Shown here piece after piece: positions 13,837 through 32,000 of a stretch of 32,000 nt of DNA. Position numbers and translations under genes: made by a program. Below the pieces are notes generated by a model. It saw only the letters and a list, made by a program, of their open reading frames with translations, had not been told where the DNA came from and made no database searches. Every line of letters starts with the position of its first letter. The stretch's first letter is position 1. Source of the stretch: Paenibacillus sp. XY044 (GTDB lineage: Bacteria > Bacillota > Bacilli > Paenibacillales > Paenibacillaceae); the NCBI RefSeq assembly GCF_002257645.1, contig NZ_NQMO01000001.1, positions 574,065-606,064 on the forward strand, given 5' to 3'.

Positions 13837-13877
13837 CCAAATAAAAACCATATTTTATAGTGAAAGGAGTGTAATAC

Positions 13878-14120: not shown

Positions 14121-14155
14121 AATACATAGCTGGCTGAAAAAGAGGAGAGAGTATT

Positions 14156-14488: not shown

Positions 14489-14522
14489 TAATAGAGGTGT
14501 TGAACAATGCATTTTAAGAGGA

Positions 14523-14753: not shown

Positions 14754-14780
14754 AACATAAACTTGTAGGAAGTGATAAAA

Positions 14781-15263: not shown

Positions 15264-15275
15264 AATAAAAATACA

Positions 15276-15304
15276 TATACTATTACTTTATAATGTGATA
15301 TAAT
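15276..15304 (+). promoter_or_regulatory. Extended -10 promoter for the actin-like cassette
   Basis: TGaTATAAT at 15296-15304, with a weak -35 TATACT at 15276-15281 (17-nt spacer). It lies in a 114-nt intergenic gap. Confidence 0.45.
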
Positions 15305-15377
15305 CTCTAATATAAGATGTAGCACAAAAGGGAACAGGGCGCCACGCTGTGTCTCTCTTTATATTGGGAGGTTAATC

Positions 15378-16325: not shown

Positions 16326-16597
16326 AAATCTTGAGAGCACGATTACGAAAACATAAAGACAAAGATCTGCAAGAAGCAATGAGCAAAATACCTATATATT
16401 ATGATCAAAGCGATATTATAAGAGAAGCCTTAAGACAGTTTTTATTTGGTCATCAAGGAAGAGAACCGCAATTACTTGGTAGTGAAATCATGAAGGATAT
16501 TGGTAAAGTAGAAGAGGAAGAATTAGTTGAATTAGAAGAAATTGAGGTAACTGATGAAGATTTAGAGGCGAAGTTAGATGAGTTTATTTTAAAGTAG
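16316..16597 (+). CDS. Ribbon-helix-helix-like small DNA-binding protein with an acidic tail (ParR-like adaptor candidate)
   Basis: The basic N-terminus KILRARLRKHKDKDL is followed by helices ending IIREALRQFLF. The C-terminus is highly acidic (VEEEELVELEEIEVTDEDLEAKLDEFILK). It overlaps the actin-like gene by 10 nt. Confidence 0.5.
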   Translation: MEMKILRARLRKHKDKDLQEAMSKIPIYYDQSDIIREALRQFLFGHQGREPQLLGSEIMKDIGKVEEEELVELEEIEVTDEDLEAKLDEFILK

Positions 16598-16610
16598 GCA
16601 TTTGCCTACT
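16593..16610 (+). terminator. Short hairpin overlapping the stop codon (weak terminator candidate)
   Basis: AGTAGGC / GCCTACT 7-bp stem with a 4-nt loop, followed only by TT. Confidence 0.3.
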
Positions 16611-16645
16611 TTAATACATAAATATAACTATATAAGGAGGTTAAA

Positions 16646-17020
16646 GTGAGTCGACATAAAAAGTTCATTGCATTTTGTCTTAAGAAAGCTAGGAAGAATC
16701 GTATCGATAATTACCGACTTGCAGCGACGATAATCAAGGGAGGCAGAGTTATTGCTGTAGGAGTCAACTCAAATAAGGCCGGTTGTCTAATTGACCCATT
16801 GTACGAAAACAAGGGAGTTCATGCTGAATTGGATGCACTTTGCAAACTCTCTGAGAAGCAAATAAAGGGATCAATTATGTATGTAGCAGGTTGGAGTAAG
16901 GCAAACAATATGATCACCTCAAAACCCTGTCCAAAGTGTCAGGAATACATGAAAAAGTTTGATTTGAAAGCAGTATACTATTCGATGCCGAATGGTGAAT
17001 ATGAGGAGTTAACTATTTAG
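16646..17020 (+). CDS. CMP/dCMP-type zinc deaminase (probable dCMP deaminase)
   Basis: Zinc-ligand motifs HAELDAL and PCPKCQEYM. GTG start 5 nt after AAGGAGG. Confidence 0.7.
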   Translation: MSRHKKFIAFCLKKARKNRIDNYRLAATIIKGGRVIAVGVNSNKAGCLIDPLYENKGVHAELDALCKLSEKQIKGSIMYVAGWSKANNMITSKPCPKCQEYMKKFDLKAVYYSMPNGEYEELTI

Positions 17021-17033
17021 AGGAGGTGGTTAA

Positions 17034-17207
17034 TTGAATTTAGAGTTATTCACTAAATACTATGTAGATTGCGGAGGTAGTGATGAGTTTCAAGGTTGGA
17101 ATTTGATTGTGCTGCGAACAAAACCATTTCAATTTAGATGGTTCACGGATTGTGGTTATCATTTCTTATACATTAATTTGGGTAAGAAGTGTTGGAGAGT
17201 TGTTTGA
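17034..17207 (+). CDS. hypothetical small protein (57 aa, below the ORF-track cutoff)
   Basis: Hand-translated from TTG 17034 as MNLELFTKYYVDCGGSDEFQGWNLIVLRTKPFQFRWFTDCGYHFLYINLGKKCWRVV. AGGAGG sits at 17021-17026. Confidence 0.45.
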   Translation: MNLELFTKYYVDCGGSDEFQGWNLIVLRTKPFQFRWFTDCGYHFLYINLGKKCWRVV

Positions 17208-17252
17208 TGGCATTTAATTTTATACAGATAACTATTATGAAAGGAGTAAACA

Positions 17253-18236
17253 TTGATAGTGAAGCTATGTGAGATTTGCGGTTCCGGTGAAAGAGTGAGC
17301 TTTGTTAAGAAATCTAGGAACGAAAAGTATTTAGGAATGAATATATGTCATAAACATCGTCAGCAAATTTATAGAAATGGCAAAATAACTGATAATATGC
17401 GTTCACGAAGAAATGATGAAAGGATCTGCGATATTTGCAAAGACGGATTTGACGTAAGGCAATGTGGATTAAATGGGAACTATAATGGTTTTTTATTGTG
17501 TCGAAAGCATTATCACCAAGTAAGAGCGACTGGTAGCATAGTTGATGCAAATAAAAGCCACCGTGATAGAGATAGGATTTGCGAGGTGTGCAATAAGGAA
17601 GATGCTATTTATTGCAGCGAGTTAGATAAGATGCTTTGCAGAAGACACTATGATCAAGTTTGGAATTATGGAAAGATTTTCGAAAGGACTGTTTTCGATT
17701 CGAATGATATCGTTAAATATGATACATATGCAGAAGTGATTTTGTATAATTCTAAGCACATTGAAAAAGGAAGGGTAAAAATAGATTTAGAAGATGTGGA
17801 GCATCTTTCAAAATATAAATGGTATCTTGATACATGGGGTTATGCTTCTACTGGCAATGGAAATGGAGGCACAAAGTCAGTGATGATGCAAAGGTTAATC
17901 ATGGATGTAGAGAAAGGAGAGATTGTTGATCATATAAATAGAGACACGCTAGATAATCGGAAAGAGAACTTGAGAATTGCCGATAAATCATTGAATGCTG
18001 TAAATGCAGGTTTGCGTACCAATAATACAAGTGGCGTTACGGGAGTATCTTTCAACAAACATGCAAACTGTTGGCGAATTTATATTAACTACCAGGGAAA
18101 GCGTATAGAGTTAGGTTATAAAAAGGACTATTGCGATGCAGTTGTAGCGAGATTATTAGCTGAAAAGGAATACTATCCAGAACATCCACCACAAAAACAT
18201 CTATTCGAAGAATATGGGGTATTATACGATGAGTGA
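17253..18236 (+). CDS. HNH homing endonuclease with an AP2 DNA-binding domain and three N-terminal Cys/His repeats
   Basis: HNH_3-like KWYLDTWGYAS...DHINRDTLDNRKENLRIADKSLNAVN. AP2-like SGVTGVSFNKHANCWRIYINYQGKRIELGYKKD. Three CxxC...CxKH..Q(I/V)...G(K/S)I units occupy residues 5-148. Confidence 0.75.
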   Translation: MIVKLCEICGSGERVSFVKKSRNEKYLGMNICHKHRQQIYRNGKITDNMRSRRNDERICDICKDGFDVRQCGLNGNYNGFLLCRKHYHQVRATGSIVDANKSHRDRDRICEVCNKEDAIYCSELDKMLCRRHYDQVWNYGKIFERTVFDSNDIVKYDTYAEVILYNSKHIEKGRVKIDLEDVEHLSKYKWYLDTWGYASTGNGNGGTKSVMMQRLIMDVEKGEIVDHINRDTLDNRKENLRIADKSLNAVNAGLRTNNTSGVTGVSFNKHANCWRIYINYQGKRIELGYKKDYCDAVVARLLAEKEYYPEHPPQKHLFEEYGVLYDE

Positions 18237-21200
18237 TAACTACGTCTTATACCATCTGCACTCCGATGCAAGTAATCCATCGAGTTCAATGTCTATGGAC
18301 TCAATAACTAAATTTGAAGAATATATTAATGCCGCCGAAAAAAACGAGATGACTGCTATCTGCTTCTCGGAACATGGGAATATCTTCAACTGGGTTAACA
18401 AGAAGAAAACAGTTGAATCCAAAGGATTAAAATACATACATGCGAACGAAGTTTATCTTACCGAACACAATGATAGAGAGCGTGGTTTAATAAGAGATAA
18501 TTATCACTATATGCTTATTGCAAAAAATTGGGATGGGGTCAAGGAGTTAAACAAACTAACATCCATTTCGAATGATAAGCTTGATGGTCATTATTACTAT
18601 AATCCTCGCGTAACGTTTGAGGAACTATTCAATACTTCAGATAACATAATTATGACCTCAGCCTGTCTTGCTTCGCCATTATGGAGAGCACTAAAAAATG
18701 ATAATAAGCAGATGCTAAACATGTTTATGGATTTCTTTGTGAAAAATAAGCATCGTATGTTTTTTGAAATTCAGTATCACTCACACCCAGAACAAAAATT
18801 ATTCAACCAACATCTATACGAACTATCTAAGGAGACAGGTATTCCTTTGATTGCTGGCACTGACACTCATGCTTTGAATAGAGATCAGGCAGAGGCAAGA
18901 AAGATACTTATGAAGGCAAAGGGTGCTACGTATGGAGACGAAGATTCTTTTGATTTAACATTTAAAACTTATCCCGAACTAGTGAGAATGTTTGAAGAGC
19001 AAAGTGCAATCCCACGAAGCGCTTATCTGGAGGCTATTTACAACACCAATGTAATGGCGAATATGGTTGAAGAGTTCACTTTAGATAAGTCAGCTAAATA
19101 TCCTAAGATTCACGAAGATTCAGAGAAGGTGTTTAAAGAAAAAATTAATATCGGTGTAAAAGAGCATGGAATTAATAAATTCCAAACTGAGAAGCGACAA
19201 GAGTATTTCAAGAGAATACGTGAAGAGTTTGATACATATAAAGCCGTAGGTGCAATAGACTACATGCTGCTGCAGAAAGATGTTGTTGATTGGGCACATA
19301 GCAACGGAATATATCAAGGATATGGTAGGGGATCGGTAAACGGAAGTTTAATTGCGTACCTGTTGAAGATCACTGAAATGGACAGTATTAAGCACAAATT
19401 GAACTTCTTCAGATTCCTTAATCCAGAACGCATCTCTCTAGCTGATATTGATCTGGATTGGCCACCAAGTAAAAGACAGGATGTTATTGATTATGTAGCA
19501 TCAATACCAGGGATTCATTTTTCTGAGATAATCACATTTAACACTATCGCACTAAAAGGAGCCATTAGAGAAGTTGGGCGAGCTTTAGGTATGGAATTAT
19601 CCTTAGTCGATGAGATAGCAAAATCCGTATTCAAAGATGAGAAAAAGAAGGATACCGTAGATCGTCGGTATAGAGAACAGTACCCAGAACTATTCAAATA
19701 TGTGGATTTGGTACAGGGAGTAATAATGAGTATTGGTTCTCACCCATCTGGATATGTTGTATCGCCAATTAGCTTGGACGATAATATTGGGTTGTGCTTC
19801 ACCAAGGAGAGTAAATATCCTGTTAGTCAAATCAATATGAAAGAGCTAGATGGATTAAACTATGTAAAGCTTGATATCCTTGGACTTGATAACATCGAAA
19901 TCATTAACGAAACGTGTAAACTAGCAGGAATTGATAGATTGGTTCCAGACAACATGGACGTTAATGATGAGAATGTTTGGAACTCAATTAGAGAATCGGG
20001 CTTAGGGATATTTCAATGGGAAAGCGTTAGCGCTCAAGCCTACCTCAAAGACCTGTTGAGTCCTGAAACAATACATAAAATCAAACAGCAACACCCGAAC
20101 TTTAGTTACATTGAGTTATTTTCAATTGGAAATGGTGCAATCCGACCATCAGGTGACTCATATAGACAGGCGTTGGCAAACGGAATATTTAAAGATCACG
20201 GTCACTCTGCACTAAATAAGTTCTTGGAAAATACAATCGGATATCTCGTTTATCAAGAACAAATCATGAATTTCCTGGTTGAGTTCTGCGATTTCTCAAT
20301 GGCTGAAAGCGATAGTGTAAGGCGGGGATTGTCAAAAAAAGAAGGCACTGAAAAGTTTTTGCCAGAGATTCGAAAAAGATTTATTAATAAAATGATAAAA
20401 GAATATCAAGAGACTGAAGAAGCTGCCATTTCAGTACTTGAACCATTTTTGCAAGTTATTGATGATGCCCAGCGCTATGGATTTTCTGATAACCATTCGA
20501 ATCCTTATTCTCATATCGGTTACGGAAATGGATACTTACGCTATTATTATCCGTTGGCCTTCTTAACGGTAATGCTGAATATAAATAAGGACGACATCGA
20601 GAAGACAGGTCAGATAATTGAATATGCAAAGACAAGAGGAATTGAAATATCGCCAATCAAGTTTGGTAAATCTGGATCATCTTATTCTTATAACGAAACT
20701 GATAATATGATTTACAAAGGATTAGAATCTATAAAGTTCCTTAATGCTAATATTGCAAACGAGCTGCTCCAATTAAGCAAAAATAAATATAGTGATTTCA
20801 TGTCCTTGCTAGCCGATGTAACAGAAAAAACATCGGTAAATTCAAAACAGTTAAAGATTCTAATCAGACTCAACTTTTTTTCCGAGTTCGGTAATAGCAG
20901 TCTCCTTCTTAAACTACATGAAGAGTTCTCTGAAGGAAAGATAAAATACGGTAAAAACTTAAAGTCAAAACTGCAAAGGTTAGAGAGTTTGATTGAATAT
21001 GAGCATAAGATCAGAAAAGAAGACTCTATTCCTGATACATTGCCAAATGACGAAGTGATGTTTCACAAGGAGATGTTAGGTTATGCCGATATTAAATATC
21101 CTCATGTCTCTCCTGGATGGTGTGTTCTTACTGAATTGGATACCAAGTATTCTCCCAAATTAACACTATACAACCTAAAAACCGGACAAGAACGAATATT

Positions 21201-21405
21201 TAAGATGGACAAGAAAACATTTAACGTAAAAGATAATTCTTTGAAAATTAATAAGGGCGATTTGATTAGGATTGATAGCTTCATAAAGAAACAGAGGCAA
21301 GTACCTGACGGCAAGGGCGGTTTTAAACCAACTGATCAAACAGATGTATGGATAACAGGTTACACAAAATACAGCGACAAGGAGACTTTAAATGGAATTA
21401 AGTAA
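18229..21405 (+). CDS. DnaE-type DNA polymerase III alpha subunit (phage-encoded, SPbeta YorL-like)
   Basis: PHP domain YHLHSD...CFSEHGN...IHANEVY. Polymerase core GRGSVNGSLIAYLLKITEMD...FFRFLNPERISLADIDLDW, KLDILGLDN and LVYQEQIMNF. ATG 18229 overlaps the HNH stop (ATGAGTGA); the in-frame ATG at 18214 is an alternative. Confidence 0.9.
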   Translation: MSDNYVLYHLHSDASNPSSSMSMDSITKFEEYINAAEKNEMTAICFSEHGNIFNWVNKKKTVESKGLKYIHANEVYLTEHNDRERGLIRDNYHYMLIAKNWDGVKELNKLTSISNDKLDGHYYYNPRVTFEELFNTSDNIIMTSACLASPLWRALKNDNKQMLNMFMDFFVKNKHRMFFEIQYHSHPEQKLFNQHLYELSKETGIPLIAGTDTHALNRDQAEARKILMKAKGATYGDEDSFDLTFKTYPELVRMFEEQSAIPRSAYLEAIYNTNVMANMVEEFTLDKSAKYPKIHEDSEKVFKEKINIGVKEHGINKFQTEKRQEYFKRIREEFDTYKAVGAIDYMLLQKDVVDWAHSNGIYQGYGRGSVNGSLIAYLLKITEMDSIKHKLNFFRFLNPERISLADIDLDWPPSKRQDVIDYVASIPGIHFSEIITFNTIALKGAIREVGRALGMELSLVDEIAKSVFKDEKKKDTVDRRYREQYPELFKYVDLVQGVIMSIGSHPSGYVVSPISLDDNIGLCFTKESKYPVSQINMKELDGLNYVKLDILGLDNIEIINETCKLAGIDRLVPDNMDVNDENVWNSIRESGLGIFQWESVSAQAYLKDLLSPETIHKIKQQHPNFSYIELFSIGNGAIRPSGDSYRQALANGIFKDHGHSALNKFLENTIGYLVYQEQIMNFLVEFCDFSMAESDSVRRGLSKKEGTEKFLPEIRKRFINKMIKEYQETEEAAISVLEPFLQVIDDAQRYGFSDNHSNPYSHIGYGNGYLRYYYPLAFLTVMLNINKDDIEKTGQIIEYAKTRGIEISPIKFGKSGSSYSYNETDNMIYKGLESIKFLNANIANELLQLSKNKYSDFMSLLADVTEKTSVNSKQLKILIRLNFFSEFGNSSLLLKLHEEFSEGKIKYGKNLKSKLQRLESLIEYEHKIRKEDSIPDTLPNDEVMFHKEMLGYADIKYPHVSPGWCVLTELDTKYSPKLTLYNLKTGQERIFKMDKKTFNVKDNSLKINKGDLIRIDSFIKKQRQVPDGKGGFKPTDQTDVWITGYTKYSDKETLNGIK

Positions 21406-21517
21406 AAAGCAAATTGAAAAAATATTAGGAAAGAATATCTCGGATTCAGATTATATTGAATATTTAATTTATACGTATCAGCAGCTCAAAAAGGACGAAG
21501 AAAATGGGCAGTCTTGA
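21392..21517 (+). CDS. hypothetical small protein (41 aa, below the ORF-track cutoff)
   Basis: AAGGAG lies 7 nt upstream. Hand-translated as MELSKKQIEKILGKNISDSDYIEYLIYTYQQLKKDEENGQS. It overlaps both neighbours. Confidence 0.4.
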   Translation: MELSKKQIEKILGKNISDSDYIEYLIYTYQQLKKDEENGQS

Positions 21518-21734
21518 TAGATTTGAAAATCCATACTACCAAAAACGATTCCCTGATCCACAAGAAAAGGAAGTGATGGAATACTCAACTTGTTCGGGGT
21601 GCAGAAAGATTGTAACCAATCAAGAAGTTGATGATGGTGAGGTTTTAGATGTCTACGGAATGGTCGTTCATGATGATTATTCATGTTTGAAAAAAGCAGT
21701 AGAAGCAAGAACAATTTATTTAGATAAGGAATGA
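21504..21734 (+). CDS. hypothetical small Cys-containing protein
   Basis: ORF-track ORF containing a CSGC pair. Confidence 0.5.
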   Translation: MGSLDRFENPYYQKRFPDPQEKEVMEYSTCSGCRKIVTNQEVDDGEVLDVYGMVVHDDYSCLKKAVEARTIYLDKE

Positions 21735-21738
21735 TTTA

Positions 21739-22266
21739 TTGACTCACCTATATGCCTTTGATTTAAGTATGGAGTGCACAGGATTAACAATATTCGATTT
21801 AGAATCTGTGCTTCCTGTATTAGTAGCTAGCATTTCGACATCACATTTCAGGAAGAACGCCACACATGGACAAAAACTAAAATACATAGAAGATGAAATT
21901 ATTAAGATTGGCAAGAAATATGCTCCCTCAGTCGTTGCAATTGAACGCGGATTTAGCAGGTTTAATACAAGTACACAAGTGATATATAGAGTTCATGGCG
22001 TGATAAATAAACTCTTTCACAATTATGAGCAAATATATTATCCTCCCAAAACAGTAAAAGAAGCTATCTGTCGTGGAGACGCAACAAAGAAGTACGTACA
22101 AGAAACAATACATAAGGTTTATCCAGATATTAATTTTAGCAATGAAGATGAATCTGACTCGTTCGCCATAGCATTAACTTATCTCATTAAAAATGATTTG
22201 ATCAAGTGGAACAAAGTTGAGATTAAAAAGAAAAAAGCAAAAGAGAAAGCATCAAAAGAGGAATAG
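21739..22266 (+). CDS. RuvC-like Holliday junction resolvase
   Basis: The catalytic acidic residues sit in the expected contexts: YAFDLS, VVAIERGF and DESDSFAIAL. The tail is basic. TTG start 8 nt after AAGGA. Confidence 0.7.
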   Translation: MTHLYAFDLSMECTGLTIFDLESVLPVLVASISTSHFRKNATHGQKLKYIEDEIIKIGKKYAPSVVAIERGFSRFNTSTQVIYRVHGVINKLFHNYEQIYYPPKTVKEAICRGDATKKYVQETIHKVYPDINFSNEDESDSFAIALTYLIKNDLIKWNKVEIKKKKAKEKASKEE

Positions 22267-22299
22267 GACAAATTGTGAAGGGAGTATTGATATACAGAG

Positions 22300-22467
22300 G
22301 TGATTGATATCGAAAACAAAAATAGCAATATATTAAATATTACGAAACCAGATAATCAGTTAAAGACACACGAAAAGAAAGTTGAAGTTGTAAAGGTGAT
22401 CTTTCTAGGCGAGTTTAAGTTATCTGATTACATACATAGTAAAATGCTCCAAGAATTAAATAGTTAA
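22300..22467 (+). CDS. possible small ORF (55 aa) immediately upstream of the recombinase
   Basis: Hand-translated from GTG 22300 as MIDIENKNSNILNITKPDNQLKTHEKKVEVVKVIFLGEFKLSDYIHSKMLQELNS. The SD is poor. Confidence 0.25.
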   Translation: MIDIENKNSNILNITKPDNQLKTHEKKVEVVKVIFLGEFKLSDYIHSKMLQELNS

Positions 22468-22540
22468 TCGACTGGAATCAATGGTCAAAACTAATTATAA
22501 TATTAGTATGGCCATTGATATTTTTGTAAAGGAGAGAATC

Positions 22541-24130
22541 ATGAAAACGTGTATTTATGCTAGAAAATCAACAAATAATCTAGGACAGAAAGAAACTCTA
22601 CAAAACCAAATTGATTTATGTAAATATAAATCTAAAGAGTTTGGTTTGGAAATTGTTGATATTAAAACTGACACTGGGACTGGTACTGACGATAATAATC
22701 GACCAGAAGTAAAAGAACTGATTGATGATGCGATAAATGGGAAGTATCAATGTGTCATTATGAAGGGGATAAGTAGGTTTTATAGAGATACTGAGAAAGG
22801 TTTAGCATTAATAAAATTGTTGGACAGATATGGGATAAGAGTCATCACAATTGAGGAGAATTTTGACTCAAGAGAACAAAGAACAGGTACAGGAAAGTTA
22901 GACACTTCGAGAATAACTATGTACCTGATGTTTGCAGAGATGGAATCTAAGAAAACTGCGGATCGAGTAAAGTTTCAGCAAATGGAGAGCGCTAGAAAAG
23001 GAGTGTGGACTCACGGTAAGCCACCATTTGGTTATCGACGCAACGATGATTCGAAAAAACTAGAAATAGTTGAACACGAAGCGGAAGTTATTAGATACAT
23101 TTTCGAACTATACTCTCAAGGATATGGTGTAAGAACGATAACACTCATTTTGAATGGTGAAAATAATGAAAAAAAGGTTTACCTCGCCCCTGTGAACACA
23201 TGGAAACACGATACAGTCACTTATGCTTTAAACAATAGAACTTATGCGGGAGATATTATTTATAATCAACGTAGTAGTAGAGAGAACTTATTTAAGAAAA
23301 ATCACAAATTGAAGATGGACAAGAGGGATTCATGGAAAGGATTGACTAAGAATAAGAAACAGGATTGGGTTATTGCAGACGATGCTCATCCAGCAATTAT
23401 TGATAGAGAATTGTACGACAGTGTGCAGCGAATGCTGAAAACGAAATCCAGTAATCGGGGAATTAAACGCAATTTTTCCTTGTTTGCAGGAATAGGGAAA
23501 TGTGGAGTGTGTGGATCAGGATTGACTCTAAAAAAGATGAAGATCAATAAGAAGGCTCCCCGGCAGTCATACTATTACTGTGTTAAATATACGAAATACG
23601 GAAAGAATTTTTGTAGCAATCATAGAATAGAAGAGGGACAGTTGGAGAAAGTAGTATTAGAAAATTTAAAGAGTTTGCACTCAAATCCTGATATACTAAA
23701 GCAGTTTATGGAAGATAAGTATTCGAAGATTGAAGATAGATTGAAAAATAAGAAAAACGATCAGGAGAAAATTAGATTAAGAATAACTGAGCTTACGAAG
23801 AAAGTTGACTTGCTATTAGAAAAGAATCTGAACGGCGATATTACAGACCTTCAGTTCAATAAAATGAATCAGAAGTATTCAGTTGAACTTGATGAACTTA
23901 CATCAAAACTTGAGAAAACTGTAGTGGTTAATGAATCAGAAGGAAAAGAAAACAGCAAGAATGAGAATTTCCTGAGAGCAAAAAAAGCTCTTGAAAAAGT
24001 AACGGATTATGACAAGATGGACAAAGAAGAAAAAAGAGTTTTACTAATTGATTTGGTTAAAAGCGTCACACTTATCTCTGAAGATACAGAATCGATAAAG
24101 ATTGATATTGAGTATAACTTCGAATTATAG
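22541..24130 (+). CDS. Large serine recombinase (phage integrase, SprA-like)
   Basis: ATG 22541 lies 4 nt after AAAGGAGAG and gives MKTCIYARKST (catalytic Ser context). Also present are GISRFYRD, a recombinase domain, the zinc ribbon CGVCGS...YYYCVKY...CSNH and a C-terminal coiled coil. It is the last phage gene before the junction. Confidence 0.88.
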   Translation: MKTCIYARKSTNNLGQKETLQNQIDLCKYKSKEFGLEIVDIKTDTGTGTDDNNRPEVKELIDDAINGKYQCVIMKGISRFYRDTEKGLALIKLLDRYGIRVITIEENFDSREQRTGTGKLDTSRITMYLMFAEMESKKTADRVKFQQMESARKGVWTHGKPPFGYRRNDDSKKLEIVEHEAEVIRYIFELYSQGYGVRTITLILNGENNEKKVYLAPVNTWKHDTVTYALNNRTYAGDIIYNQRSSRENLFKKNHKLKMDKRDSWKGLTKNKKQDWVIADDAHPAIIDRELYDSVQRMLKTKSSNRGIKRNFSLFAGIGKCGVCGSGLTLKKMKINKKAPRQSYYYCVKYTKYGKNFCSNHRIEEGQLEKVVLENLKSLHSNPDILKQFMEDKYSKIEDRLKNKKNDQEKIRLRITELTKKVDLLLEKNLNGDITDLQFNKMNQKYSVELDELTSKLEKTVVVNESEGKENSKNENFLRAKKALEKVTDYDKMDKEEKRVLLIDLVKSVTLISEDTESIKIDIEYNFEL

Positions 24131-24149
24131 GGTTGAGTACATATATTTT

Positions 24150-24190
24150 TTATCTACAGTGATTATCTATGGGAGCCGATCCCCGTCGCA
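24150..24190. other. Prophage-host junction (attR-type hybrid site, approximate)
   Basis: G+C is 19/60 in line 24061-24120 and 36/60 in line 24241-24300 (hand counts). Host-like coding sequence begins at the GAG CCG ATC CCC codons at 24173. Confidence 0.6.
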
Positions 24191-25051
24191 CAAACGTTTC
24201 ATTACCAGGACGAGGCCTCCGGGATCGACCTGACGAAATATGCGCGGCTGGATTGCATGGTCACCGTGGTCGACGCGCATCGCTTCTGGCATGATTTTGC
24301 CTCGGGGGAAACGCTTCTGGACCGGAAGGAAGGCGCAGGGGAGGAGGATGACCGCGATGTGGCCGATCTGCTCATCGATCAGATCGAAACCTGCGACGTG
24401 CTGCTGCTGAATAAATGCGATCTGGTGGAGGAAGGAGCGTTACAACAGCTGGAGGGATTGATCCGTAAACTTCAGCCTACGGCCAAAATCATCCGTACCG
24501 TGAACGGGGAGGTAGCGCCGGGGGAAATCATGAACACGGGCCTGTTCGATTTTGATGCGGCGAGCCAGTCTTCCGGCTGGATTCAGGAACTGGAGCGCGA
24601 ACATCATACTCCTGAAACGGAGGAATACGGCATCGGCTCCTTCGTATACAGCCGGCGCGCCCCGTTTCATCCGGAGCGGCTTGCCGCGCTGCTGTCGGAT
24701 TGGCCGGAGGAAATCGTCCGCGCTAAGGGATTGGTCTGGCTGGCTGTCCGCGGCGACATGGCGGCAAGCATCAGCCAGGCCGGGCCGTCGATTCAATTCG
24801 GCCCGGCGGGCTATTGGGTTGCTTCGCTTCCGGAAGCAGAGCAGCGCGAATGGCTGGCAAGCGAGCCCGATCTCCGGCGCAGATGGGATGAGGCCTGGGG
24901 TGACCGGTTGAACGAGATCGTGCTGATCGGGATCGGCATGGACCGGGATGACATCACCCGCCGGTTGGATGAGTGCCTGCTTACCGGCGGAGAGATGGAA
25001 ATGAACTGGTCCGAGTTTTCCAATCCGCTGCCTTGGATCGAAATCCAATAA
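24173..25051 (+). pseudogene. 3' fragment of a COG0523 G3E GTPase gene (CobW/YciC/ZigA-type metallochaperone) split by the prophage
   Basis: The frame reads EPIPVAQTFHYQDEASGIDLTKYARLDCMVTVVDAHRF...LLLNKCDL..., followed by a CobW_C-like domain. The P-loop and CxCC N-terminal section (about 95-100 aa) is absent, and phage DNA abuts the GISEPIPVAQTF-type motif. Confidence 0.8.
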
Positions 25052-25067
25052 TATACGTATAGTGCTT

Positions 25068-25103
25068 AGCCGTCCGAATAGGGTTCATTCGGGCGGCTTT
25101 TTC
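25068..25103 (+). terminator. Rho-independent terminator after the COG0523 gene
   Basis: AGCCGTCCGAAT / ATTCGGGCGGCT 12-bp stem (one G-U pair) with loop AGGGTTC, followed by TTTTTC. Confidence 0.75.
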
Positions 25104-25201
25104 GCGTGAACCGTAAGGAACGTCGGTCACACCTATAGCGACAGGACGTATCCGCCTTGCGTTTGAATCCGCTCAATGGGGTGCCCTGCTCTGAAACGGA
25201 T

Positions 25202-25229
25202 TTGACGGACGTTATAAATTCTTTAGAAT
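25202..25229 (+). promoter_or_regulatory. sigma-A-type promoter candidate for the ABC/two-component operon
   Basis: TTGACG (25202-25207), a 16-nt spacer, then TAGAAT (25224-25229). It sits about 30 nt upstream of the AGGAGGAG SD. Confidence 0.45.
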
Positions 25230-25262
25230 TGCCTCCTATACTTCTTGGCAGGAGGAGATCAT

Positions 25263-26000
25263 ATGAACGAGATGAACGTACTGGACGTATTGAACGTATC
25301 GAAAAAAGCAGGGTCGCGCACCTTGGTGGACCAAGTGTCATTTTCCATACAGGCCGGGGACGTATGCGGTTTTGTCGGCCCGAACGGTGCCGGGAAAACG
25401 ACGCTGATCCGAATGATGACAGGATTGATTAAACCGGGGGGCGGGAGCATCCGCATTGACGGAACCGATGTGGGGCGCGAGCGGGTCAAAGCGCTGTCCC
25501 GTGTCGGGGCGATTGTGGAATCACCGATCTTTTTCCCTTACATGTCGGGCAGGGACAACCTGCTGAACTTGGCCAGGCTGCATCCGAATGTGCCGGGGAC
25601 GGAACGCAAAGCACGCGTCGAGGAGGCGCTGTCGATTGTAGGACTGAGCGAACGCGGCCAAGACAAAGTGAAAACTTACTCGCTCGGCATGAAGCAGCGG
25701 CTTGGCATCGCGCAGGCGCTGCTCGGGGATCCGCGGCTGATCATTCTGGACGAACCGGCGAACGGCCTTGACCCGATGGGTATCCGCGAGCTGCGCCAGT
25801 TGATTCAGCGGCTGAATCAGGAACGAGGGATTACTTTTTTGGTTTCGAGCCACCTGCTGGACGAGCTGCAGCGAATTTGCAGCCGCTTCGTCATCATTAA
25901 GGAAGGCAGGCTGGTCTGGGAAGGCACGAGCCGCGAGTGGCAGGAGGCGGCAGGGACTAAGGGGATCGAAGAGCATTTTGTGGAGATGATGACGTCATGA
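25263..26000 (+). CDS. ABC transporter ATP-binding protein
   Basis: Walker A GPNGAGKTT, signature YSLGMKQRL, Walker B LIILDEP, H-loop SSH. ATG 25263 lies 5 nt after AGGAGGAG. Confidence 0.9.
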   Translation: MNEMNVLDVLNVSKKAGSRTLVDQVSFSIQAGDVCGFVGPNGAGKTTLIRMMTGLIKPGGGSIRIDGTDVGRERVKALSRVGAIVESPIFFPYMSGRDNLLNLARLHPNVPGTERKARVEEALSIVGLSERGQDKVKTYSLGMKQRLGIAQALLGDPRLIILDEPANGLDPMGIRELRQLIQRLNQERGITFLVSSHLLDELQRICSRFVIIKEGRLVWEGTSREWQEAAGTKGIEEHFVEMMTS

Positions 26001-26842
26001 GCAGATCCTTGTTTCTGAGCGAATGGGAACGGATGTGGAAGCGGAAAATCACCTGGCTGTTCCTGATCGCCATGCCCGCCGTCGTCGCGGCAACCGCCAA
26101 ATATTATGCCGGCCATAATTTGGGGACACCGCCCGCGAGCCCCGAGTACACCTGGGCGGGGAATTTTCCGGTGATGGCCCTGATCGAGCAGCTGATCGTC
26201 GTGTTCAACGTGATTTCCCTGGTATTGCTCACGCTTTCCGTCACGGAGGAATACCGCAGCGGGCAGATCCGGATGGTCATGCTACGTTCGTTCACGGCAG
26301 GGCAGCTGCTGCGCGCTAAGTGGCTCGCCCATACGGCGGTGATGGCGCTGTATTTTACCGTATACCTGCTATTCTCAGGGGTCGCCGGGCTGTTGTTCTT
26401 CAAGTCTCACGACTACATGCAGCTGTTTTACTATGATCATACCGTCCGCGTCTCGGGGATGCTCGGCTATACCCTGATGTATTACGCAATTGCGTTTATG
26501 ACCGTGCTGGCACTCGGGAGCGTCTTCATGGCGGCGGCCGTGATTTCAAGGACGACGACCGGGGCCGTAGGCTTAGGGCTCGGGTTTCTGCTGTGCTCGC
26601 TCGGGTTCCCGCTGATCTATCAGCTGGCCAATCGGGTCGGCGGGCTGGGGATGCCGGCTATGCTCAAGTATTTGTCATTGACCGAAATTCAGTACAGCGG
26701 GATCGCTGTCATGCTTGGGCAGGCGCAGGCTGTAAATTCGGGTGCCGTCGCCTTGGCCGCACTGCTCGTATGCGCTCTATACGCCGCGGTCTTCGGGGTA
26801 GGGTCGCTGCTTGTTTTTTCAAAATCGGACCGGTGGATGTAA
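25997..26842 (+). CDS. ABC-2-type transporter permease 1
   Basis: ATGA overlap with the ATPase gene. Polytopic hydrophobic protein of 281 aa. Confidence 0.8.
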   Translation: MSRSLFLSEWERMWKRKITWLFLIAMPAVVAATAKYYAGHNLGTPPASPEYTWAGNFPVMALIEQLIVVFNVISLVLLTLSVTEEYRSGQIRMVMLRSFTAGQLLRAKWLAHTAVMALYFTVYLLFSGVAGLLFFKSHDYMQLFYYDHTVRVSGMLGYTLMYYAIAFMTVLALGSVFMAAAVISRTTTGAVGLGLGFLLCSLGFPLIYQLANRVGGLGMPAMLKYLSLTEIQYSGIAVMLGQAQAVNSGAVALAALLVCALYAAVFGVGSLLVFSKSDRWM

Positions 26843-26854
26843 GGAGGTTATACT

Positions 26855-27625
26855 ATGTTTGCTTTGATGCGAAGCGACTGGGAACGGATGTGGAAACGGA
26901 AGAAGACGCTCATCAGTCTGCTAATCTTTGTTTTCATCGTGGGATTTGACTGCTTTTTTTTGAACATGCAGAAACTGGGGGCGTTCGATAACGTATCGAC
27001 CGTACCGCTTGGGACCGAGAATTTCGCCTTGTTTCTATTAAAAGAGGTATCGTTCTTCCTCGTGCTCATTATCGGACCGATGCTGATCATAGACAGTATG
27101 AACGGAGAGTACACAACCGGACAGCTGCGGATGGTGTTGATTCGTCCTGTATCCTTCGCCAAGCTGTTTCTGGCCAAATGGCTGAACCTGGCGGTGCTGC
27201 TGCTGCTGTTCACGCTTGTTACGTTTGCCGTCGGCGAAGCCTTCGGCTATGCCTTCCTGCCCGGTGCGGATACCGTGGTGTTTTTGAATCCGGAACACCG
27301 CTACGGGCCAGTCGGTGCGTTTTTCTACTGCTTGACGTCTTACGGCCTCTTTTATCTGATCCTGCTGGCGCAGCTGAGTTTGACCAGCCTGATCTGCACG
27401 CTGCTGCCTGGCGTCGTGCTTAGTTATTTGGGGTGGATAGCGGCCGCGGTCGGCGCGCTGTATGTCTCCGATTCGCTCGGGTTTCTGCTGATGGGGATGG
27501 ATACGGTCTTTAAATTGACGGCCGGAATGTACCATAATCCTTTTTATTTACCGCTTCTGATGTGTCTTGGATCCGGCATTGCCGTTACAATGGGAATATG
27601 GCAGCGGAGAGGCTGGACCAAATAG
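26855..27625 (+). CDS. ABC-2-type transporter permease 2 (paralogue of permease 1)
   Basis: AAGGAGG SD. Its N-terminus MFALMRSDWERMWKRKKT parallels MSRSLFLSEWERMWKRKIT of permease 1. Polytopic, 256 aa. Confidence 0.8.
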   Translation: MFALMRSDWERMWKRKKTLISLLIFVFIVGFDCFFLNMQKLGAFDNVSTVPLGTENFALFLLKEVSFFLVLIIGPMLIIDSMNGEYTTGQLRMVLIRPVSFAKLFLAKWLNLAVLLLLFTLVTFAVGEAFGYAFLPGADTVVFLNPEHRYGPVGAFFYCLTSYGLFYLILLAQLSLTSLICTLLPGVVLSYLGWIAAAVGALYVSDSLGFLLMGMDTVFKLTAGMYHNPFYLPLLMCLGSGIAVTMGIWQRRGWTK

Positions 27626-27649
27626 AGAGAGAAGAAAGAGGTACATGGA

Positions 27650-28345
27650 ATGAGCGACAAAATACTGATCGTGGATGACGAAGCCGAAATTGCCGCCCTG
27701 CTGGAGCAGGCGCTAATGATGGAAGGCTATGAAGTAACGACCGCCGCAGACGGCCGTGAAGCGCTGGACCGGATCCAGGACCGGCCGGATCTGATCATTC
27801 TGGATGTCATGATGCCGCATGTCAACGGTTTCGAGCTGTGCCAAATGATCCGCGAGGAGGTGGGCTGTCCGATTCTGTTCGTCAGCGCGAGGCAGGCCGA
27901 AGCGGACCGGATCCAAGGGCTGTCCATCGGCGGTGATGACTATATTACGAAGCCGTTCAGCATCCGGGAGCTGAAGGCGCGCGTTGCGGCCCATCTTCGG
28001 GGAAGCCGCCGCGCTGCCGGTCAGCAGGCGGAACGGTCCACTTTGCGGTACGGGTTAATGCAAATCGATCTTAACGGGCGGAGCATTGCTTACAAGCAGA
28101 TCGGGATTCCGCTGACAGCCAAGGAATTCGATATCATCGAGCTGCTGGCGCTTCACCCCGGCCAGGTCTTTTCCAAGGAGCAAATCTATGACAAAGTGTG
28201 GGGGCTTGAGGCGATGGGGGATGCCAGCACGGTAACGGAGCATGTGAAGAAAATCCGGGCGAAGCTGGGCGGTACGGATCCGGATACCCCTTATATCAGC
28301 ACGGTTTGGGGGGTCGGCTATAAATGGGAAAAGTCAGCTTTATAG
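27650..28345 (+). CDS. OmpR-family response regulator
   Basis: Receiver domain ILIVDDE...ILDVMMP...TKPF, plus a winged-helix output domain LTAKEFDIIELL...TVWGVGYKW. Confidence 0.9.
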   Translation: MSDKILIVDDEAEIAALLEQALMMEGYEVTTAADGREALDRIQDRPDLIILDVMMPHVNGFELCQMIREEVGCPILFVSARQAEADRIQGLSIGGDDYITKPFSIRELKARVAAHLRGSRRAAGQQAERSTLRYGLMQIDLNGRSIAYKQIGIPLTAKEFDIIELLALHPGQVFSKEQIYDKVWGLEAMGDASTVTEHVKKIRAKLGGTDPDTPYISTVWGVGYKWEKSAL

Positions 28346-29805
28346 AACGGCTCTCCATTAAGAAACAGCTAATCTATACCTTCATTCTGATTATGGTGCT
28401 CAGTTTAGTGCTGACAGCGATAACCTATATTCTAGGTTTTTGGTGGCTTACAAGCAGCCGCTGGTTCAATCCGGCCAATCATTACGAACAGAAAATTCCG
28501 GCGATTGCCACATACTCGCGCAGCTTGGGAGATGCGGTGCTGGATCCGGCCAACCAGCCGAAACTGGAGGTGAAGATTCCGGGTGAAGGGATCCAGTACC
28601 AGGTGATGGACACCGAAGGCAAGGCATTGTACGGAACGTTAACTGGGCCGGTCTTTGAGAAAAAAGGGGATTTGGTCCAACACTTGAATACCACTTTTTC
28701 ACGGAATCGCAGCGTCGGGTTCGGCGGCGTTATTACAAAAATCGTGCCCGTGACTTCGTCTTCCGGCGAGCTTCGCGGCGCCATCGCGCTGGAGTACAAG
28801 CTTGAGGTGACTTCAAACGGCGGTCCAGGGGCAGCGGATATTCTCAAATTTGCCCTGAATATTTGCTTTCTTGCAGCCCCTTTTATTTACATTGCGCTCT
28901 TTACCTACATATTTGCGGCCAGGTTCGGAAGGCGGATCAGCCGACCGGTTCACGAACTCATCGATGCTTCCGAGCGGATCCGCAGGCAGGATCTTGATTT
29001 TACGATCACATACAAGGCGGCCAATGAACTGGGGCTGCTCACCGATTCCTTTGAAAAGATGCGCGCCGCGCTGAAAGACTCCCTGCTCAGGGAATGGAAG
29101 CTCGAGCAGGAGCGCCGGGATATGATGGACGCCATCGCTCACGACCTCCGGACGCCGATGACGATTATTCAGGGAAACGTCGAAATGCTGACGGATACCG
29201 CCGGAGTGATTTCGCGCGACAAGCTGGAAGAGCGTCTCCGCGTGGTGGAGGGCAACATCCAGCGGGTTAACCGGCTGATTCAGGATATTCAGGTGGCTTC
29301 CGAGAAGGATATGGAATATTTTCCGCTGTACGTGAAAGAAACGGATGTCGCGGAGTTCGCAGGCGCCAAAGAACGGGAGATCCGGTATTTATGCGCAGGA
29401 AAGCATGTCCAGCTGGAATATACGGTGACCGATGAGCGACCTGAGCCGTGTTCCGTTTATATGGACGTCCAGAGAGTCGGACAGGTTCTGGATAACGTGA
29501 TCACGAACAGTCTGCGGTATGTTCCGGAGAGGGGGAGTCTCATCGTATCGCTCAAGATCCGGGAGAAGGACATCCGGTACGAAATCTGCGACACGGGGCC
29601 CGGTTTCGACGAAGCGGACATCCCGCATTTGTTCCGAAAGTTTTACAAAGGTGACAAGGGGCAAACCGGACTCGGGCTGTATACGGCCCGCGTCATTTGC
29701 GATAAACATGGGGGAGTCATCGAGGCTTCCAACCGGCCGGAAGGCGGGGCGTGCATTGCGTTTACGGTACGGACGGACTTGAACAACCGAGAATCGGAGC
29801 AATGA
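28324..29805 (+). CDS. Sensor histidine kinase (two TM segments, extracytoplasmic loop, HAMP, HisKA, HATPase_c)
   Basis: H-box DAIAHDLRTPMT, N-box NVITNSLRY, G-boxes DTGPGF and GLGLYTA. It overlaps the regulator gene by 22 nt. Confidence 0.9.
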   Translation: MGKVSFIERLSIKKQLIYTFILIMVLSLVLTAITYILGFWWLTSSRWFNPANHYEQKIPAIATYSRSLGDAVLDPANQPKLEVKIPGEGIQYQVMDTEGKALYGTLTGPVFEKKGDLVQHLNTTFSRNRSVGFGGVITKIVPVTSSSGELRGAIALEYKLEVTSNGGPGAADILKFALNICFLAAPFIYIALFTYIFAARFGRRISRPVHELIDASERIRRQDLDFTITYKAANELGLLTDSFEKMRAALKDSLLREWKLEQERRDMMDAIAHDLRTPMTIIQGNVEMLTDTAGVISRDKLEERLRVVEGNIQRVNRLIQDIQVASEKDMEYFPLYVKETDVAEFAGAKEREIRYLCAGKHVQLEYTVTDERPEPCSVYMDVQRVGQVLDNVITNSLRYVPERGSLIVSLKIREKDIRYEICDTGPGFDEADIPHLFRKFYKGDKGQTGLGLYTARVICDKHGGVIEASNRPEGGACIAFTVRTDLNNRESEQ

Positions 29806-29835
29806 CCGGGAAGCGGTAGTAAGGCGCCGGCAAAA

Positions 29836-29865
29836 ACAGGATGCGTTCATCCTGTCTTTTGATTT
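29836..29865. terminator. Bidirectional rho-independent terminator
   Basis: ACAGGATG / CATCCTGT stem with loop CGTT. It is flanked by CAAAAA upstream and CTTTTGATTT downstream, and lies between convergent genes. Confidence 0.7.
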
Positions 29866-29918
29866 GTTAGCGGCGGGTCAATCGTCGATACGGTGGATTG
29901 AGATCTCGTAACCGATGT

Positions 29919-30119
29919 TTATGCGAAGGGATGTTTCCCCTTTTTTCGTCTTAGCAGGCTCCAAGTGATGGCAAGCAACCAGGGCGTGCTTTTTTTCGGA
30001 TTGTCGGAATGATGACGTTCGCTCGATTCTTGGGTTTCTGATACGCCGGCATGTCTGCGCCGATGCTGCGCATGTCGGTATTCCATCAATTTTTCCTGTA
30101 CATAATGATGTTCCAGCAT
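29919..30119 (-). CDS. small His/Arg-rich hypothetical protein with a hydrophobic C-terminal segment
   Basis: On the minus strand, GAGGAGGAGATCAC precedes ATG 30119. The product is MLEHHYVQEKLMEYRHAQHRRRHAGVSETQESSERHHSDNPKKSTPWLLAITWSLLRRKKGKHPFA. The longer ORF-track start at 30185 lacks an SD. Confidence 0.45.
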   Translation of the reverse strand: MLEHHYVQEKLMEYRHAQHRRRHAGVSETQESSERHHSDNPKKSTPWLLAITWSLLRRKKGKHPFA

Positions 30120-30274
30120 GTGATCTCCTCCTCGAATAAATGTTCCGGTGTTGGATTTATCTGTCTTTTCTCTGTCTAATGCCATTATGATCTATTCAAA
30201 AGGGGATAAAAAGTGTATACTTGCGCAAAAGGATTTCCTCTTTTATTGGAACGTGAGAGTAAGGAGGGGTTAGC

Positions 30275-32000
30275 ATGCTGTTAGACGAAAGGTATTTGCT
30301 GCTGCATGAACGCTTTGGCGTCGGAACCGAGCTTGGGGTGCCCGTCGAAGTCACGCTGTATGAGCTGGCCGATGCGCTGTATTGCACCACCCGCAACGCC
30401 AAGCTGATTTTAAGAAAACTGGAAAGTGAGCATTTGATCGAGTGGCTGCCCGGGCTGGGCCGGGGAAACCGGTCAAGGATCGTATTCAAAGCTGACAAGG
30501 AAGCCTATTTGATCGAGTACTCCCAGCATCTCGTGGAGCAGGGCGATTACAAACGCGCTTTCGACCTGATCGGCGGATTTGGAAACGGAACGTTCGCCAA
30601 ACCGAAATTTCTCGAATGGCTTGATAATCACTTCGGCTACAAAAAAGGGGAAGAAGGCGGCCTTGACGATACGCTGATCTTTCCGGTACTGAAGTCACCG
30701 CAAACGCTGGACCCCGCCGATTTGATGTACTCGTTCGATTCGCATTTGATCCGGCAAATTTTCGACAGGCTGCTGAGGTTTGAAGAACAGACCGGCACCA
30801 TTGCACCGATGATCGCTCATACTTGGTCATCCAATGACAGTGCCACGGAGTGGACGTTTTATCTGCGCAAGGGAGTCCGTTTTCATAACGGTCAGGAGCT
30901 GACCTCACGCGATGTTCAGTATACGCTCGAGCGGCTTCAGGCCGGGACGGCCAACAACTGGCTGATGCGCGGCGTGGAGTGCGTTGAAACGATCGGCCCG
31001 CGGGTGCTGCGGGTCAAGCTGAACCAGCCCAACCGGATTTTTGACCGGTTCATGTGCTCGGCGGCGGCTTCAATTCTGCCCTATGGCTTCGCAGGCTTGG
31101 ATGAGGACAGCTATTGGGGCCACCCGCTCGGAACCGGGCCGTTCCGGCTGGTCACCTGGACCAGCGGACGGATCGAGATGGCGGCGTTCGACGCCTATTT
31201 TCAGGGGAGACCGTATCTGGACGGCGTGGACATCGTGATCATGCCGGAAGACTGCAGCACAGAAATAGACGGGATGGCCAAGGTCCACCACAGCCTGGAC
31301 ACGATGCGCATGGACCGGCATACGCCGGAGGAAAGCTGGCAGGAGATCGAGAAGTTGTGCCAAGGCTGTACGCTGCTGACCTGGAACGTTTCGCACGAAG
31401 GGGTGCAGCAGTCGGAGGCGTTCCGGCGAGCCGTGCGGATGATCCTTCATCCCGGAGAGATGGTAGCGGAGCTGGGCGGCGAACGGGCGCTGCCGGCTTT
31501 CGGATTCCGCCCGGATGCGAGCCGTTCCCACGCGGTGGAGCCGATGCGTCCCGATCGCGTCCGGAGGGCGCTGGATGAATCGGGATATAACGGAGAGGTC
31601 CTCCGCTTTGCATTCCACCAAAAATATGGGGAAGACGGGATGTGGGTCGTAAACCGGCTGGCTGCCTGGGGAATCCAAACCGAGACCCTGGATTATGACC
31701 AGTGGCCGGAATCGGATTTGGTCATCTCCGGCCTGGTGTTCCCGGAAGACGAGGTCTGCGAGATCGAAGCCTATGCGCACCGCGATTGCGTCATGCAGAC
31801 GTATCTTGACGGTGAGCGGATGGAATGGATTACGGGCCGGATCGATGCGGCCGTGGCAGCCGAAACCACGGACCAGCGGCGGATGTTCCTGAAGGAGATC
31901 GAGGAACATCTCCGCGATGAGGCGACGGTCATTTTTTTGCACCACCGGAGGCTGAGTACCTATTTACACCCCTCGGTGCGCGGCGTCAGCCTGAATCAGC
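30275..32000 (+). CDS. SgrR-family transcriptional regulator (N-terminal HTH plus family-5 solute-binding domain); 3' end outside the window
   Basis: Not in the ORF track because it has no stop. Hand-translated from ATG 30275 (AAGGAGGGG SD). It reads MLLDERYLLLHERFG...LYELADALYCTTRNAKLILRKLESEHLIEWLPGLGRGNRSRIVF, then ...LDPADLMYSFDSHLIRQIFDRLL...WTFYLRKGVRFHNG... Confidence 0.8.
   Translation, partial: MLLDERYLLLHERFGVGTELGVPVEVTLYELADALYCTTRNAKLILRKLESEHLIEWLPGLGRGNRSRIVFKADKEAYLIEYSQHLVEQGDYKRAFDLIGGFGNGTFAKPKFLEWLDNHFGYKKGEEGGLDDTLIFPVLKSPQTLDPADLMYSFDSHLIRQIFDRLLRFEEQTGTIAPMIAHTWSSNDSATEWTFYLRKGVRFHNGQELTSRDVQYTLERLQAGTANNWLMRGVECVETIGPRVLRVKLNQPNRIFDRFMCSAAASILPYGFAGLDEDSYWGHPLGTGPFRLVTWTSGRIEMAAFDAYFQGRPYLDGVDIVIMPEDCSTEIDGMAKVHHSLDTMRMDRHTPEESWQEIEKLCQGCTLLTWNVSHEGVQQSEAFRRAVRMILHPGEMVAELGGERALPAFGFRPDASRSHAVEPMRPDRVRRALDESGYNGEVLRFAFHQKYGEDGMWVVNRLAAWGIQTETLDYDQWPESDLVISGLVFPEDEVCEIEAYAHRDCVMQTYLDGERMEWITGRIDAAVAAETTDQRRMFLKEIEEHLRDEATVIFLHHRRLSTYLHPSVRGVSLNQ

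Follow-up and report, generated by a model that had tools for sequence, protein, structure and literature searches.

The window analysed here is a stretch of 32,000 nt from Paenibacillus sp. XY044 (contig NZ_NQMO01000001.1, nt 574065 – 606064), within which a prophage gives way to host DNA. The last phage gene encodes a large serine recombinase (LSR; nt 22541 – 24130, + strand), and the host DNA opens with the 3' fragment of a gene for a ZigA-like metallochaperone GTPase of the COG0523 family (nt 24173 – 25051, + strand; codons 106 – 398 and the stop codon, as assigned by Pfam, NCBIfam and orthologue alignment). The composition profile gives a G+C content of 0.351 over nt 1 – 24172 and of 0.558 over nt 24173 – 32000, the step being confined to about 50 nt around nt 24160. 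An earlier note on this DNA had described a prophage with a terminal LSR that splits the COG0523 gene, the host frame resuming at nt 24173, some 40 nt past the LSR stop. The domains of the LSR, the 3' fragment from nt 24173 and a reciprocal fragment at the other attachment site (attL, see below) bear this out, and the spacing between the LSR stop (ending at nt 24130) and the start of host DNA at nt 24173 was measured as 42 nt.

The LSR, which serves as the integrase, is 529 aa long and apparently intact. It begins MKTCIYARKST, the YARKS motif carrying the catalytic Ser10, and contains the Resolvase domain (PF00239, residues 5 – 156, 8.7e-23), the Recombinase domain (PF07508, 2e-18) and Zn_ribbon_recom (PF13408, 1.3e-13), together with Cys321, Cys324, Cys347 and Cys358. 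By its domains it is a large serine recombinase of the phage-integrase type, with predicted activity. WP_179281011.1, from Paenibacillus sp. XY044, has the same sequence (100% identity). A longer open reading frame (ORF) of 549 aa was considered and set aside, as it has no exact record and the start on record gives 529 aa from nt 22541. When contigs were scanned with the LSR, the only matches were a partial one of 73% in a Thermoanaerobacterium metagenome-assembled genome and one of 32%.

The split COG0523 gene and its two junctions

The frame that opens at nt 24173 reads EPIPVAQTFHYQDE... and closes with the stop at nt 25051. Pfam cobW is matched only from position 95 of its 180-position profile, CobW_C is complete (8.5e-23), and positions 95 – 389 of the 390-position NCBIfam ZigA profile are covered; from this coverage about 105 N-terminal residues, including the P-loop and the CxCC motif, are missing at this locus. 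A protein search with the 3' piece recovered full-length orthologues of 395 – 408 aa throughout Paenibacillus. PF02492 and PF07683 are found in the COG0523 orthologues, and uninterrupted 398-aa copies in the orthologue cluster come from P. cellulositrophicus, P. rhizosphaerae, P. favisporus, P. cineris and others. The best orthologue (P0001, 398 aa) is 95% identical to the 3' piece, and on its contig (L001) the gene is intact and stands last after genes for ABC_tran, ABC-3 and ZnuA proteins. On the 3' side L001 has one extra gene and then the same ABC-transporter and two-component genes as the window. The extra gene encodes a zinc-type alcohol dehydrogenase (L001 11428 – 12564), lies between the COG0523 and ABC-transporter genes, and is absent in the window strain (nt 25052 – 25244). 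DNA similarity to L001 begins exactly at nt 24173, and this homology breakpoint, coinciding there with the step in G+C content, supports insertion by a phage.

The missing part was located by a search with the first 106 residues of P0001, which led to a protein of 109 aa (P0121), 98% identical and ending ...ESTGISEPI*. Its contig (L003, SRR5928793_155) carries znuC-znuB-znuA upstream of this 5' fragment. Directly downstream of the fragment lies low-GC DNA with amidase, holin and tail-fibre genes and a gene for a 2320-aa tape-measure protein, all on the opposite strand. The P-loop/CxCC part was therefore found beyond the far end of the prophage, beside phage lysis and tail genes, where the earlier note had expected it. 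A further Logan contig (SRR5928793_41, L002), which is an independent assembly, equals nt 12778 – 32000 of the window with 0 mismatches in 19,223 nt; since L003 and L002 belong to the same run, SRR5928793, the two fragments come from one genome.

When L003 10001 – 10318 is joined in silico to nt 24173 – 25051, the result is a 1197-nt ORF encoding 398 aa, within the range of about 390 – 400 aa that had been foreseen for the intact protein. The rebuilt protein is identical to P0001 at 382 of its 398 positions (96%) and carries the P-loop GYLGSGKTT and GCICC (the CxCC metal motif). It resembles ZigA/ZagA (YciC) in spanning the full ZigA profile (positions 1 – 389 of 390), in its P-loop, CxCC motif and CobW_C domain, and in being encoded with znuCBA behind Zur boxes. 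Its score, however, is 534 bits, under the equivalog cut-off of 600 bits, so that it is termed ZigA-like and not a formal equivalog, with a function predicted from sequence. As the 5' fragment is present, and as relatives carry the uninterrupted gene and not the same truncation, the locus represents an insertion rather than an old deletion, in agreement with the earlier note.

Three matches to a Zur box, one of them perfect, lie upstream of znuC, against 0.09 expected; the consensus used was that of B. subtilis Zur. On the evidence of gene order and these boxes, the split gene is the last of a znuC-znuB-znuA-COG0523 operon and stands in a Zur-regulon context. The upstream znuCBA genes are untouched by the insertion.

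Attachment sites in XY044 and in related phages

Comparison of attL with the right-hand site, attR, yields an 8-bp core, GAGCCGAT (nt 24173 – 24180, + strand), common to attL, attR, attB and attP. The left-hand site reads ...GGCATCTCC-GAGCCGAT-ATAATCATTATAG... and the right-hand site ...CTACAGTGATTATCTATGG-GAGCCGAT-CCCCGTCGC..., the 5' end of the COG0523 3' fragment doubling as the B' arm of attR. Between the LSR and the core lies the P arm, the phage half-site of attR (nt 24131 – 24172, + strand), with the clade-conserved motif CTACAGTGATTAT at nt 24154 – 24166. The same arm adjoins the LSR in two relatives described below (in L008 as part of an attP, in L009 of an attR), and in both the motif likewise stands 6 nt from the core.

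The reconstructed attP, CTACAGTGATTAT-N6-GA-GCCGAT-ATAATCAyTrTrG, is an imperfect inverted repeat. In three attPs the centre of dyad symmetry falls on the GA that opens the core (nt 24173 – 24174), with a symmetry of 14/22 in the XY044 reconstruction, 15/20 in L008 and 16/20 in L012, and we infer that this GA, inside codon Glu106, is the crossover dinucleotide. The crossover site in attB would lie in the nucleotides for the invariant motif ESTGISEP(I/V)PVAQTF, and a stretch so conserved would offer a stable landing site across Paenibacillus species.

A Logan contig of 145,414 bp (ERR11465906_35, L008) encodes an LSR 88% identical to that of XY044, and its LSR gene is followed directly by the attP CTACAGTGATTATCTATGGGAGCCGATATAATCACTGTGG, as predicted. 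In its att region (11590 – 11664) this contig runs for precisely 22 nt beyond the 8-bp core and then breaks off, at a distance of one 31-mer from the last base that is specific to the arm. If attP and attL occurred together in the reads, an assembly graph with k=31, which we take to be the kind used for this contig, would break just there, and this suggests that the sample held a mixture of excised and integrated phage. On a metagenomic contig (L012) a 56%-identical LSR is likewise followed by an attP, nearly perfectly palindromic, with the core GAACCGAT.

In Paenibacillus sp. ISL-20 (L009), a block of low-GC phage DNA closes with an LSR gene (59% identity), and the genes before it are the same as in XY044. 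After this LSR gene comes CTACAGTGATTAT-N6-GAGCCCGTGCCTGTTGCGCAGACC..., the latter being the Glu-Pro-Val-Pro-Val-Ala-Gln codons of the COG0523 gene of ISL-20 itself. As the phage of this diverged LSR occupies the same codon, and its motif is spaced in the same way, the Glu codon of COG0523 would be a target of the phage lineage. A perfect Zur box, TCGTAATAATTACGA, lies just 3' of the ISL-20 COG0523 gene (L009 ~12525 – 12545), before a 131-aa ORF, which would place this prophage, too, in the middle of a Zur-regulon cluster.

More distant LSRs of the clade (44 – 50% identical) keep the CTACAGTG arms with differing cores. Two of these, on a short contig from Logan (L013) and in an IMG/VR genome of 154,759 bp (L017), are attP forms, and a further relative, with a 44%-identical LSR, lies on an IMG/VR contig of 166,613 bp. 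Two LSRs of 47 – 48% identity (L010 7594 – 8849 and L011 7513 – 7992) adjoin other host ORFs that are apparently 5'- or 3'-truncated. Of these two, the one in Bacillus sp. Y1 adjoins a 5'-truncated ORF that looks flotillin-like by eye, and the one in Ammoniphilus resinae a fragment of a trypsin-like protease. The sequences adjoining these genes suggest that the entire LSR clade integrates inside coding sequences. Pattern scans of JGI metagenomes and IMG/VR gave no further attR or attP of the COG0523 type, and a looser att pattern gave one match that looks like chance. The exact XY044 insertion was seen, in the searches made, in one strain and run only.

Between the resolvase gene and the LSR gene lies a small conserved ORF of 55 aa with a GTG start (nt 22300 – 22467, + strand), whose C-terminal motif is FLGEFKLxDYIxxKMLxEL. 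It stands directly 5' of the LSR gene in L008, L009, L010, L011, L012 and L013, whatever the att core, and homologues were placed at L008 9757 – 9927, L012 1597 – 1767, L010 5804 – 5938, L011 5734 – 5844 and L013 5803 – 5928. It had no match in PHROGs or in tblastn against phages, belongs to no known family, and shows no similarity to SprB (hhalign probability 0.1%). Given its conservation upstream of every clade LSR, and an order of resolvase, small ORF and att that parallels yotM-sprB-att of SPbeta, it may reasonably be proposed as a candidate recombination directionality factor (RDF).

Comparison with gene-intervening elements and fate of the split gene

The earlier note had set this locus beside SPbeta in spsM and skin in sigK. 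The parallel holds as far as an LSR beside a reconstitutable ORF is concerned; it does not extend to the target, which belongs to a Zur operon, to the LSR, which is 27% identical to SprA, or to SprB, of which no homologue was found. Like SPbeta (in spsM) and phi3T (in kamA), the XY044 prophage has its LSR gene at one end, adjoining a split host ORF that excision would restore in frame. It also resembles SPbeta as a low-GC temperate siphophage of probably >120 kb with its own DnaE-type polymerase and an intein-bearing ribonucleotide reductase (RNR), and in having a Holliday-junction resolvase and then a small ORF beside att (PMC4191935). In SPbeta, however, the integrase gene yokA/sprA abuts one att and the other end holds yotM (the resolvase), yotN (SprB, 58 aa) and att, so that sprB and the resolvase lie opposite sprA, whereas here the LSR is at the end with the replication module and the lysis module is at the other. 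The two resolvases are unrelated and of different type, the small ORF is unrelated to SprB, the host is a Paenibacillus, and the target is a Zur-regulon gene where that of SPbeta is a sporulation gene. Membership in Spbetavirus was rejected, since SPbeta is not among the 25 best polymerase matches, identity to SprA is low, the type of resolvase differs, and DNA similarity to other Bacillus phages is limited to RNR patches.

For SPbeta to excise in sporulation, sprB has to be transcribed from a mother-cell promoter, and the gene that excision rebuilds is itself a sporulation gene of the mother cell (PMC4191935). Precise excision by an LSR can also rebuild an ORF in the case of skin (SpoIVCA) in sigK, of vfbin and of gin (PMC4191935, PMC5595907). 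Elements of the skin type are mostly defective, interrupt sporulation genes of the mother cell, and are known from experiment to excise during sporulation, whereas here the phage genes seen are intact and the target is a zinc-homeostasis gene. Of the marks of a sporulation-intervening element, the XY044 locus has an ORF that excision would restore in frame, but its target is not a mother-cell sporulation gene. No convincing sigmaE or sigmaK motif was found 5' of the LSR gene by eye, and we know of no sporulation role for COG0523.

Non-sporulation genes are also occupied by SPbeta-like prophages, in pbuX and glnA (Kohm et al., bioRxiv 10.1101/2021.11.22.469490). Those prophages resemble the present one in being large and LSR-bearing and in interrupting housekeeping or metabolic genes without evidence of developmental reconstitution; they differ in phage lineage, host genus and attB gene, and COG0523 is not among their loci. 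In Listeria, phi10403S and A118 sit in comK, a non-sporulation ORF whose function is restored by excision (active lysogeny; PMC4191935). They provide the conceptual model for a hypothetical genetic switch, by reversible and non-lytic excision, at the XY044 locus.

The insertion, both of its junctions, the shared core, the attP of a relative and the use of the same site in a second species are about as firm as sequence comparison allows. The likely mechanism behind them, in our view, is integration of the ordinary LSR kind, with a conserved coding motif as the target; the gene would be inactivated by the insertion and regain activity only when the prophage is induced or cured. The phage's own LSR would have recombined attP with attB inside the COG0523 (ZigA/YciC-like) GTPase gene, crossing over at the GA inside codon Glu106. 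The insertion divides the gene of the lysogen into a 5' part of 109 aa, at attL, and a 3' part of 293 codons, at attR. Precise excision by the LSR, together with a phage-encoded directionality factor, would restore it, and by default would be expected only on prophage induction or curing. An LSR beside a split ORF is what LSR-phage integration generally produces, and LSR phages commonly target ORFs without any regulatory role. Several points weigh against this account. It assumes a loss of function, the split COG0523 gene being presumably non-functional in the lysogen. It takes the prophage to be complete, although what is seen of it is 24 kb on the right and 10 kb on the left. The exact crossover dinucleotide was placed by the symmetry of attP, that of attB (11/22) being not above shuffles. 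Finally, the P' half-site at the XY044 attL, CATTATAG (L003 10327 – 10339, within the arm that reads ATAATCATTATAG), differs by two transitions from CACTGTAG, the clade motif as found in the L008 and L012 attPs, and these changes might weaken excision.

A jump of 20 points in G+C content over some 50 nt could in itself arouse suspicion, and might indicate low-GC DNA misjoined to a truncated gene, or a gene whose 5' part was deleted long ago. Such an origin is already refuted by the sequences at hand: the junction occurs in two independent assemblies, the reciprocal junction holds the missing 5' part and the shared core, a junction of the same type exists in another species, and a relative carries the attP. 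The identity of the independent Logan assembly and the presence of the reciprocal junction also mean that the window junction is not an assembly artefact. That the conserved P' motif at attL differs by two substitutions from related attP sites would fit a prophage that integrated in the same way but whose excision has been lost or is otherwise defective, leaving the gene permanently inactive in this lineage, and so would the occurrence of the exact insertion in one strain and run and the fact that the prophage is seen at its two ends (24 kb and 10 kb). We regard such a grounded prophage as unlikely, because the LSR ORF is intact, with all of its domains and Ser10, both junctions share an unchanged 8-bp core, no ORF is broken among the replication, lysis and tail genes seen, and a close relative exists as a 145-kb contig in the attP form.

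Quite improbable, in our view, is a regulated reconstitution of the gene, in which excision is timed to the sporulating mother cell or to zinc limitation (by reversible active lysogeny, with the excised phage kept as an episome) and the prophage acts as the switch. Several features would accord with it: the host genus is spore-forming, the LSR adjoins a precisely reconstitutable ORF, the order of resolvase, small ORF and att is like that of yotM-sprB-att in SPbeta, all of the clade has kept the small ORF, two species have phages at this site, and an actin-like partition protein (phrog_691, ALP_N) could support an episome. The target, however, lies in a zinc-uptake operon with Zur boxes and is not a sporulation gene; it would be needed in vegetative cells, where excision risks loss of the phage. 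No Zur box was found in the 24 kb of phage DNA seen, the small ORF has no similarity to SprB and the LSR little to SprA, SPbeta-like phages occupy pbuX and glnA without shown rearrangement, and LSR phages often target ORFs without a regulatory role. The closest full-length copy among the listed matches is P0001, at 95% identity, although this counts for little, as clustering at 90% identity could hide one. The detailed sequence of events, in which on a cue of sporulation or zinc limitation the small ORF acts as RDF, the phage excises without lysis and possibly persists as an episome, COG0523 is rebuilt, and re-integration follows later, is about as improbable.

No paper was found, in the literature searched, that reports COG0523, CobW or yciC as a phage attB, in line with the earlier note, which knew of no such description. 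What is new is the attB target and the temperate phage lineage, as an LSR prophage in a metabolic gene is in itself already known. The LSR, attP and attB form a cleanly mapped set, with attB in a highly conserved COG0523 coding motif, and should be useful as an integration tool. The relatives define a temperate phage clade of ~145 – 165 kb in Paenibacillaceae and Bacillaceae, in which the CTACAGTG att arms are conserved while the cores, and hence the targets, vary. Lysogeny should deprive the host of a function in zinc limitation, with an effect on fitness that could be tested. Were excision conditional after all, phage-mediated gene reconstitution would extend from sporulation genes to metal homeostasis.

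Phage gene content and other features

The phage DNA of the window (nt 1 – 24172, + strand) represents the right-hand part of the prophage, with a nucleotide-metabolism and replication module, as judged by its 35% G+C, PHROG and Pfam matches, polymerase identity and synteny with phage PJN02. It encodes flavodoxin, NrdE, NrdF, dUTPase, two HNH proteins, ThyX, PTH2, an actin-like partition protein, dCMP deaminase, DNA polymerase III alpha and a RuvC-like resolvase; tRNA genes were looked for in these 24 kb and none was found. The RuvC-like Holliday-junction resolvase (nt 21739 – 22266, + strand; Pfam RuvC 4.1e-7, phrog_159 5.4e-29) is the third gene from the prophage end, and at its position L008 and L012 have a RecU-type resolvase.

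Megablast of the 24 kb against a phage collection gave nothing close; the matches were confined to RNR patches in other Bacillus phages, which are 72% identical. The polymerase is 54 – 56% identical in amino acid sequence to those of the Bacillus siphophages PJN02, FADO, PBC2 and Kirov (160 – 169 kb). In Zhangjivirus PJN02 the polymerase, a small ORF and a Holliday-junction resolvase are followed by genes for holins, endolysin and tail proteins, which lie on the other strand. The XY044 prophage, when circularised through attP, has this order too, but with the LSR and attP inserted at that point. In the region inspected, Zhangjivirus, PBC2 and FADO have no LSR or attP between resolvase and lysis module, whereas the XY044 phage carries an integration cassette and is present as a prophage. 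By polymerase identity and gene order it resembles the 165-kb Bacillus siphophages of the Zhangjivirus/PBC2 group rather than SPbeta. The phage DNA amounts to 24,172 nt in the window and, by coordinate arithmetic, up to 60,789 nt on the attL contig (10 kb of it inspected), which is compatible with the 145-kb relative. The host prophage would be a temperate siphophage of about 145 kb, a size judged from that close relative. Its G+C content is about 20 points below that of the host (35% vs 56%), an unusually large gap for a temperate phage, and an equal gap is seen in Paenibacillus sp. ISL-20 (L009 10000 – 12400).

In the host DNA, a GC-rich hairpin followed by a T run (nt 25069 – 25097, + strand), read by eye from the sequence, is the probable native terminator of the znuCBA-COG0523 operon. 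A simple terminator scan did not call it, and a scan for promoters and terminators around the junction stayed at background level.

Other truncated COG0523 genes were encountered in the searches. One (P0135) was rejected as a further insertion, as it comes from a frameshift-ridden long-read assembly. Another (P0138, L004 10001 – 10405) is an N-terminal fragment broken at GIS|, on a contig that ends 64 nt later and has TonB-dependent-receptor genes alongside. A third (P0189), also an N-terminal fragment, is broken at GIS|E and reads ESTGISERYE*. From the position of their breaks, P0138 and P0189 may be further insertions at the motif in unrelated taxa, or else assembly breaks.

Several phage genes of the window show features of their own. 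An IDEAL-domain ORF followed by the gene for the actin-like partition protein (nt 14772 – 16325) is conserved in L008 and L009, and this partition protein hints at active segregation or episomal upkeep of the phage DNA. NrdE (nt 3749 – 6997) owes its length of 1082 aa to an intein, at about residues 390 – 762, which includes a homing-endonuclease domain of the LAGLIDADG type. The HNH ORFs are at nt 8815 – 9387 and nt 17253 – 18236. The latter stands directly before, and overlaps, the gene for DNA polymerase III alpha, is not found at that position in L008, and is probably a mobile homing endonuclease. The polymerase itself has 1036 aa in the window, against ~1313 – 1324 aa in L009 and L013, a difference that an intein may explain.

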